Shown here in pieces: positions 36,085-36,113 of a stretch of DNA of 37,170 bases. Every line of letters begins with the position of its first letter. The first letter of the stretch is position 1. The notes beneath the pieces were generated by a model that saw nothing but the letters and a program-made list of their open reading frames with translations, was not told where the DNA came from and did no database searches. The DNA is taken from the IMG/VR virus record IMGVR_UViG_2585427743_000015; one strand, given 5' to 3'. A program made the translations under genes and the position numbers. Source of the DNA: a virus (taxonomy: Duplodnaviria; Heunggongvirae; Uroviricota; Caudoviricetes).

Positions 36085-36113
36085 AAAAAAAAAAAAAAAA
36101 AAAAAAACCCCCC
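36085..36113. repeat. Homopolymer tract A23 followed by C6
   Basis: 23 A's (36085-36107) then 6 C's (36108-36113), about 55 bp from the 3' end of tRNA-Leu. Confidence 0.9.

Follow-up and report, generated by a model that had tools for sequence, protein, structure and literature searches.

Phase variation usually acts on long homopolymers, and the contingency loci that carry such phase-variable tracts are recognised by length polymorphism among close relatives and by a position in a promoter spacer or in the 5' part of a coding sequence. A second class of described systems, the tRNA attachment sites of P2/186/P4-type tyrosine integrases, has an attP that carries the 3' part of a tRNA gene, so that the core is repeated at both prophage ends and one copy completes the tRNA gene. 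The third class is technical. Illumina reads show sequence-specific errors in which consecutive miscalls equal the preceding bases (Nakamura et al. 2011, PMC3141275). Among systematic errors, GGT to GGG is the strongest motif; these errors are direction-specific, return at identical positions with high replicability, and reach significance for ~1% of GGT sites (Meacham et al. 2011, PMC3295828). The triggers described in these two studies are an inverted repeat or a GG-N/GGC motif. The tract described here has features in common with all three: a long mononucleotide run, a place at the edge of a prophage inserted in a tRNA gene, and an Illumina draft genome as its source.

The window, i.e., the whole stretch of 37,170 nucleotides that we analysed, contains on the + strand a run of 23 A (36085..36107) followed by a run of six C (36108..36113), both read directly from its sequence, in the context cattt-A23-C6-gaaggtgg. 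The original prediction had singled out this run, and it is there exactly as claimed and far above chance: A23-C6 occurs once in the window and in none of 100 dinucleotide-preserving shuffles, the second-longest homopolymer of the window is 8, and the longest other homopolymer in 637 kb of related loci is 12. Outside the window, the yecR-azuC intergenic region (around position 14711 in the related loci L026, L030, L033 and L034) has a poly-G of 8 to 12 in some strains and reads GGGGTAGCTGCTTTTT or AGGGGGGCTGTTTTTT in others; this poly-G could be genuinely variable or could itself be a homopolymer artefact.

Positions 14222-37077 of the window are 100% identical to contig JORE01000037.1 of the assembly GCA_000713015.1, an Illumina draft genome of 2014, and by offset the tract lies at ~74050-74078 of this contig. 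JORE is E. coli 6_319_05_S1_C3 (ST443, phylogroup B1, O115:H5, 220 contigs), which was assembled by MaSuRCA 2.3.2 from 100-bp Illumina HiSeq 2000 reads (Table S1, Richter et al. 2018, PMC6222053; the sample accession appears there as 'SRSS568374', probably for SRS568374). Our confirmation of the tract applies to the sequence record and not to the organism. We assign a probability of about 0.87 to its being a sequencing or assembly artefact, i.e., a consensus error in GCA_000713015.1 and not a bacterial feature, and the true sequence at this place is most probably AACAAAATACAAATACAAAAAAACCACCC.

The genomic context is that of the E. coli pgsA-glyW-cysT-leuZ region. ARAGORN and Rfam place three genes of one tRNA operon on the - strand, leuZ (tRNA-Leu(UAA), 36168..36254) and, upstream of it, cysT (tRNA-Cys, 36267..36340) and glyW (tRNA-Gly, 36395..36470); the Rfam scan of the window returned these three tRNAs and nothing else. 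They are followed by pgsA (36622-37170). The tract is separated by 54 nt from the 3' end of leuZ, which agrees with the ~55 bp of the original prediction. The nearest open reading frames are more than 340 bp away on either strand, and the tract falls within the trailer and terminator of the operon. It overlaps the intrinsic terminator of glyW-cysT-leuZ, a point that the original prediction missed. The hairpin of this terminator occupies 36104..36125 on the - strand (positions 36241-36262 of the TW10722 locus L003, minus an offset of 137). Its normal form is GAAACCACC-TTCG-GGTGGTTTT followed by a T-run, with a 9-bp stem and a UUCG loop. At the empty site of strain C600 the - strand reads AAACCACC-UUCG-GGUGGUUU followed by a U-run, which folds well, and a consensus scan scored the normal allele of TW10722 as terminator-like. 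The window shares with this terminator the position 54 nt past leuZ, the 5' arm, the UUCG loop and the T-run, but its 3' arm is GGGGGG instead of GGGTGG, with an A.G mismatch in the stem: C6 is CCACCC in the relatives, i.e., the GGGTGG of the 3' stem arm on the - strand. Folding energy drops accordingly from -14.8 kcal/mol for the normal allele to -7.7 kcal/mol for the window allele, and the consensus terminator scan no longer detected the latter, although position and T-run are kept.

The same place is the end of a P2-like (Peduovirus-type) prophage, which extends from the stop codon of the integrase to the phage-specific arm of attR (1..36098). With the tail-fibre repeats set aside, its identity to the prophage of TW10722, the closest complete-genome relative, is ~99.9%. 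The TW10722 copy is annotated with an integrase, a replication endonuclease, portal, terminase, P2-family capsid and tail genes, gpD and ogr, and the closest phage records are of the Peduovirus type. In TW10722 the att core extends from ACAAAAAAACCACCC across the trailer and the 3' part of leuZ as far as GAGGGATTTTAAA, within the anticodon loop, and is found at both prophage ends as a direct repeat with a core of 122-124 bp (L003 172-295 and 36236-36359), one copy of which completes the tRNA gene, with the integrase gene adjoining attL as in other sites of this type. Of the two ends the window includes only attR, whose copy of the 124-bp core (36099..36222) takes in the terminator, the trailer of 54 nt and the leuZ sequence from its 3' end to the anticodon loop. 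The core starts inside the tract, which bears out the expectation that the prophage/chromosome junction would be found there, and the tract covers 14 nt of the phage-specific attR arm, the core boundary, the T-run of the terminator and its 3' stem arm. Set against known P2/186/P4-type sites there is nothing odd in this arrangement, and the tract simply happens to overlie the outer boundary of the core. The core is long, such that the phage carries its own 3' half of leuZ, the 54-nt trailer and the operon terminator, and after integration the working end and terminator of leuZ may be phage-derived.

Several other features of the prophage were recorded. The tail-fibre gene (24222-27077) contains 7.7 tandem copies of a 132-bp unit with 92% identity (24749-25760); TW10722 has two copies fewer (264 bp shorter), and the exact 951-aa protein of the window was found on only two public contigs. 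A ParM/StbA-type segregation pair (10090-11365) and a DUF3800 gene (11597-12403) lie between the replication and portal genes and represent plasmid-like cargo in an integrated phage. Between ogr and attR there are a gene for a toxin of the Hok/Gef family (35017-35157) and, on the opposite strand, a gene for a hypothetical protein of 93 aa (35347-35628).

Comparison with other copies of the junction reveals what changed. In M8 and TW10722 the place of the tract reads cattt-AACAAAATACAAATACAAAAAAACCACCC-gaagg, with the same length of 29 nt, and more than 25 independent copies of the junction carry AACAAAATACAAATACAAAAAAACCACCC or a close natural variant of ~29 nt with A-runs of 6-8. At the positions of the A23 run all relatives have AACAAAATACAAATACAAAAAAA or the natural variant GCACAAAATACAAATAC[A/G]AAAAAA. 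The window differs from them by five substitutions to A within the A-run (36087, 36092, 36094, 36098 and 36100) and by one substitution within C6, at 36110, where the A of CCACCC became C. Over 501 bp these six are the only differences from M8, with no indel, and the same six sites distinguish the tract from that of the TW10722 prophage. All 19-21 independent viral and metagenome contigs with the same flanks (12 viral and 7 metagenome contigs were counted) have the heterogeneous 29-mer, as has the related locus L024; variation among the flank-matched contigs is confined to A6-A8 and one CC to AC change. More distant natural alleles (TTGCACAAAATACAAATAC[A/G]AAAAAACCACCC) keep CCACCC and the short A-runs. 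Among 5,426 complete E. coli genomes none matches the 501-bp query above 98.8%, and neither the junction with a variable gap nor A7C6 plus the right flank was found in a collection of species-representative genomes. The C6 variant was not found in viral contigs, and full flattening of the A-run was seen in a single assembly, that of the window. The original prediction had also proposed a comparison with prophage-free alleles, and the C600 site gives gcacAAAAAAACCACCCGAAGGTGGTTTcacg, with a short A-run and CCACCC kept.

These alignments bear directly on two of the three readings that had been offered for the tract, a hypervariable slippage site and an insertion scar. Slippage was discarded as the change is not one of length: the more than 25 junction copies and the empty sites range only from A6 to A8, and the window departs from them by substitutions. 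The scar is unsupported because the 29 nt are co-linear with the normal allele and equal to it in length. In a broader form, this explanation would make the tract an insertion scar, a poly(A) remnant of a retro-element or, at the att junction, a contingency repeat subject to phase variation, which would account for its location at the prophage junction and fit the frequent action of phase variation on long homopolymers. Extra bases relative to the uninterrupted allele are expected of a scar or remnant, but none were added and the sequences align column by column; a contingency repeat should vary in length, but the relatives show A6 to A8 only; and the tract sits in neither a promoter spacer nor the 5' part of a coding sequence. 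We therefore give this family of explanations a nearly negligible probability. The third reading on offer, an assembly artefact, is the one backed by the evidence, so that the original interpretation holds for the junction and for the artefact and fails for slippage and insertion. A further candidate, quasi-palindrome correction, was rejected since the change in the window makes the hairpin less perfect, not more.

The six substitutions share a pattern: in each of them the replaced base is flanked on both sides by the same base, which it takes over (XYX to XXX), and together they turn a stretch with 78% A into one with 100% A. To place this in the context of the whole window we searched for other differences. 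Pairwise comparison of a locus with TW10722 is uninformative, as real divergence swamps errors, and we used an analysis of private differences. Outside the 132-bp tail-fibre repeats the window differs from TW10722 at 5 other sites in ~36 kb, without indels. At this rate 0.004 differences are expected in 29 bp, and the Poisson probability of six or more is ~6e-18. Four of the five isolated changes are also XYX to XXX (10913, gggTg; 17880, cAcc; 33324, cAcccc; 36830, cTcc), which brings the pattern to 10 of 11 differences, against a baseline of 6.3% drawn from ordinary divergence (P ~1e-11). The isolated changes are GGT or GGA to GGG, the one at 36830 following GGCGG, and four changes strike the T of GGTG, i.e., 1.1% of the 372 GGTG sites (P ~3e-6).

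Two of the isolated changes recur in unrelated strains. At 36830 a T to C change on the + strand (caacTcc to caacCcc, GGA to GGG on the - strand) causes E114G in PgsA, an essential protein that is otherwise identical in C600, M8, TW10722 and Z1323CEC0019. The E114G variant is present on at least 24 contigs from unrelated strains with at least 6 different flagellin lengths, mostly drafts of 2013-2014; because of this recurrence we regard it as probably of the same error class as the tract, and it has the appearance of a systematic error, GGCGGA to GGCGGG, that recurs among public assemblies. At 33324 an A to C change on the + strand (ctcAcccc to ctcCcccc, GGGGT to GGGGG on the - strand) alters a called ORF of 43 aa. 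The exact altered product was found on only 9 contigs, all in a few older batches of draft assemblies, and the wild-type product on at least 268. The hosts of the altered product are P2-like prophages 93-97% identical to that of the window and inserted at three chromosomal sites (near serS, near pheT/ihfA, or at leuZ), and none of the 1,370 complete genomes carrying the region matches the 201 nt of the window exactly.

The remaining changes behave differently. The T to G change at 10913 on the + strand (gggTg to gggGg), which gives V275G in the ParM-like protein, is common only to the window and to the sister colony C1 (6_319_05_S1_C1), and the A to C change at 17880 on the + strand (tcAcc to tcCcc, GGT to GGG on the - strand) is also in C1 and is absent from TW10722 and L024. 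These two are either clonal SNPs or replicated systematic errors, and the former possibility weakens the count of independent errors in the assembly of the window. The only change outside the XYX pattern, G to A at 34564, looks like a true clonal SNP, since it is present only in the window isolate and in C1 (JORT).

Could the tract nevertheless be real? Dislocation mutagenesis, i.e., transient misalignment, yields XYX to XXX changes without altering length, and six such length-preserving substitutions, or a mutator background, would give what is seen, weakening the leuZ terminator and making a slippage-prone tract. Several private changes are A:T to C:G, those at 10913 and 17880 are reproduced in the independent assembly of the sister colony, and one complete genome likewise has CCCCCC for CCACCC. 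Yet real mutation would have to place six changes in 29 bp and five in ~36 kb; a true A23 should vary fast in length and has exactly the ancestral one; unrelated strains show homoplasy at 33324 and 36830; about half of the folding energy would be lost from a terminator that serves an essential tRNA operon; and the long run is in no other copy among thousands. On this balance, real mutation is very unlikely. The A:T to C:G direction of four isolated changes raised the possibility of a mutT-type mutator, but such a mutator explains neither the five changes to A in the tract nor why 33324 and 36830 recur in unrelated strains.

A base-calling artefact would account for the tract as follows. Reads on the - strand would traverse the terminator hairpin, AAACCACC-TTCG-GGTGGTTT, and lose phase, after which the out-of-phase reads would call each isolated base as its neighbours, turning GGGTGG into GGGGGG and TTTTTTTGTATTTGTATTTTGTT into T23. 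Such miscalls would be substitutions, and the length of the tract would therefore be kept. The wrong path would then enter the consensus, possibly aided by k-mer error correction. Read-level dephasing errors that reached the consensus are the most probable origin of the tract. The pattern on the - strand is in line with this sequence of events: the 5' arm keeps its CCACC, GGGTGG in the 3' arm has become GGGGGG, and the 23 nt that follow (TTTTTTTGTATTTGTATTTTGTT) read T throughout. As in the published Illumina errors (PMC3141275, PMC3295828), there are substitutions without indels (relative to M8, TW10722 and 21 other copies), the miscalled base equals the neighbouring or preceding base (6/6 in the tract and 4/5 elsewhere), and the changes set in at an inverted repeat belonging to a gene terminator, here the 3' arm of the hairpin on the - strand. 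GGT to GGG likewise dominates, and the source is a HiSeq with 100-bp reads. The same sites are affected in independent datasets for the C6 change, 33324 and 36830, and not for the A-run flattening. In contrast to the published errors, which are read-level, strand-specific and normally outvoted by the opposite strand, the tract needs entry into the consensus and five bases flattened in a row, and is a more extreme case seen in one assembly.

Recurrence at the same sites in independent data extends to the C6 part of the tract. The CCACCC to CCCCCC change is found independently on four backgrounds: the window; L037 (1_250_04_S3_C2, from the same project), whose other differences at the junction are natural alleles; L031 (AQEG01000113.1), where the leuZ terminator reads A6C7; and L023, i.e., Z1323CEC0019, a complete genome with CCCCCC at the empty site. 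The L031 draft is of low quality, with gpD and the sheath gene in fragments (12757-16036), and it repeats this type of error at the leuZ terminator.

The assembly of the sister colony provides a related case. Over 30 kb, C1 (JORT01000039.1) differs from the window by six substitutions and two indels, and at all these positions the window agrees with TW10722. Four of the differences form a cluster on a second T-run hairpin, in the interval from the DUF3800 gene to the portal gene (12963-12988 of the window, 12874-12899 of L049), where CGGGGCATAAATTTTTTATGCCCCGG became CGGGGGATAAAATTTTTTTTGCCCCG, including GGGGC to GGGGG and TAT to TTT. Local clusters of errors that smooth the sequence into homopolymers at terminator-like hairpins are therefore present in assemblies of this project. 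The C1 contigs that we retrieved end in the tail-fibre repeats or right after ogr, the latter break being possibly due to hok-like repeats elsewhere in the genome.

Some observations fit a base-calling origin less well. Reads on the + strand should get the A-rich side right before they reach the hairpin, and they should have corrected the error; the read-level process and the success of the wrong version in the consensus are the inferred parts of the explanation. Full flattening of the A-run occurs in one assembly, and only the C6 part recurs (C6 on four backgrounds, 33324 on 9 contigs and 36830 on at least 24). Some neighbouring XYX sites are untouched, such as GGTGG at 36118-36122 and the GGCGG and GTG sites to the left of 36085. 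A rival account is an error produced by software and not by base calling, i.e., by substitution-only k-mer correction and super-reads (QuorUM/MaSuRCA), whereby a low-coverage A-rich stretch would be pulled onto abundant low-complexity poly-A/poly-T k-mers of the read set. In its favour, QuorUM correction works by substitution and MaSuRCA 2.3.2 was the assembler used; the A-rich stretch reached 100% A by substitutions alone, and the full flattening is restricted to one assembly. On the other hand, the change of GG[T/A] to GGG at isolated sites is left unexplained by this process, the same C6 change is present in assemblies from other pipelines, including one complete genome, and the direction-specific pattern, confined to the 3' arm of the hairpin, suits base-calling errors better. 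We consider a pure software origin possible but rather unlikely, and retain read-level dephasing as the preferred account of the artefact.

If the tract were true, it would be an unusual case of a mutated terminator of an essential tRNA operon that comes from a prophage. Homopolymerising substitutions in 6_319_05_S1_C3 would have made the phage-borne leuZ terminator G6T23 on the transcribed strand, halving the stability of the hairpin and creating a very long slippage-prone run, and this run could modulate read-through of the tRNA operon into the prophage end. We regard this outcome as highly improbable, and a shade more so than the mutational process invoked for it. The tract as such has no biological significance. 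Its practical value is one of quality control: JORE01000037.1 probably has a wrong 29-mer at ~74050-74078, and errors of this class create spurious non-synonymous variants in drafts of unrelated strains, such as E114G in PgsA, and spurious 'homopolymers' at terminators. Mining of draft genomes for hypervariable tracts, terminator variants or rare SNPs could thus be misled by errors of this kind.
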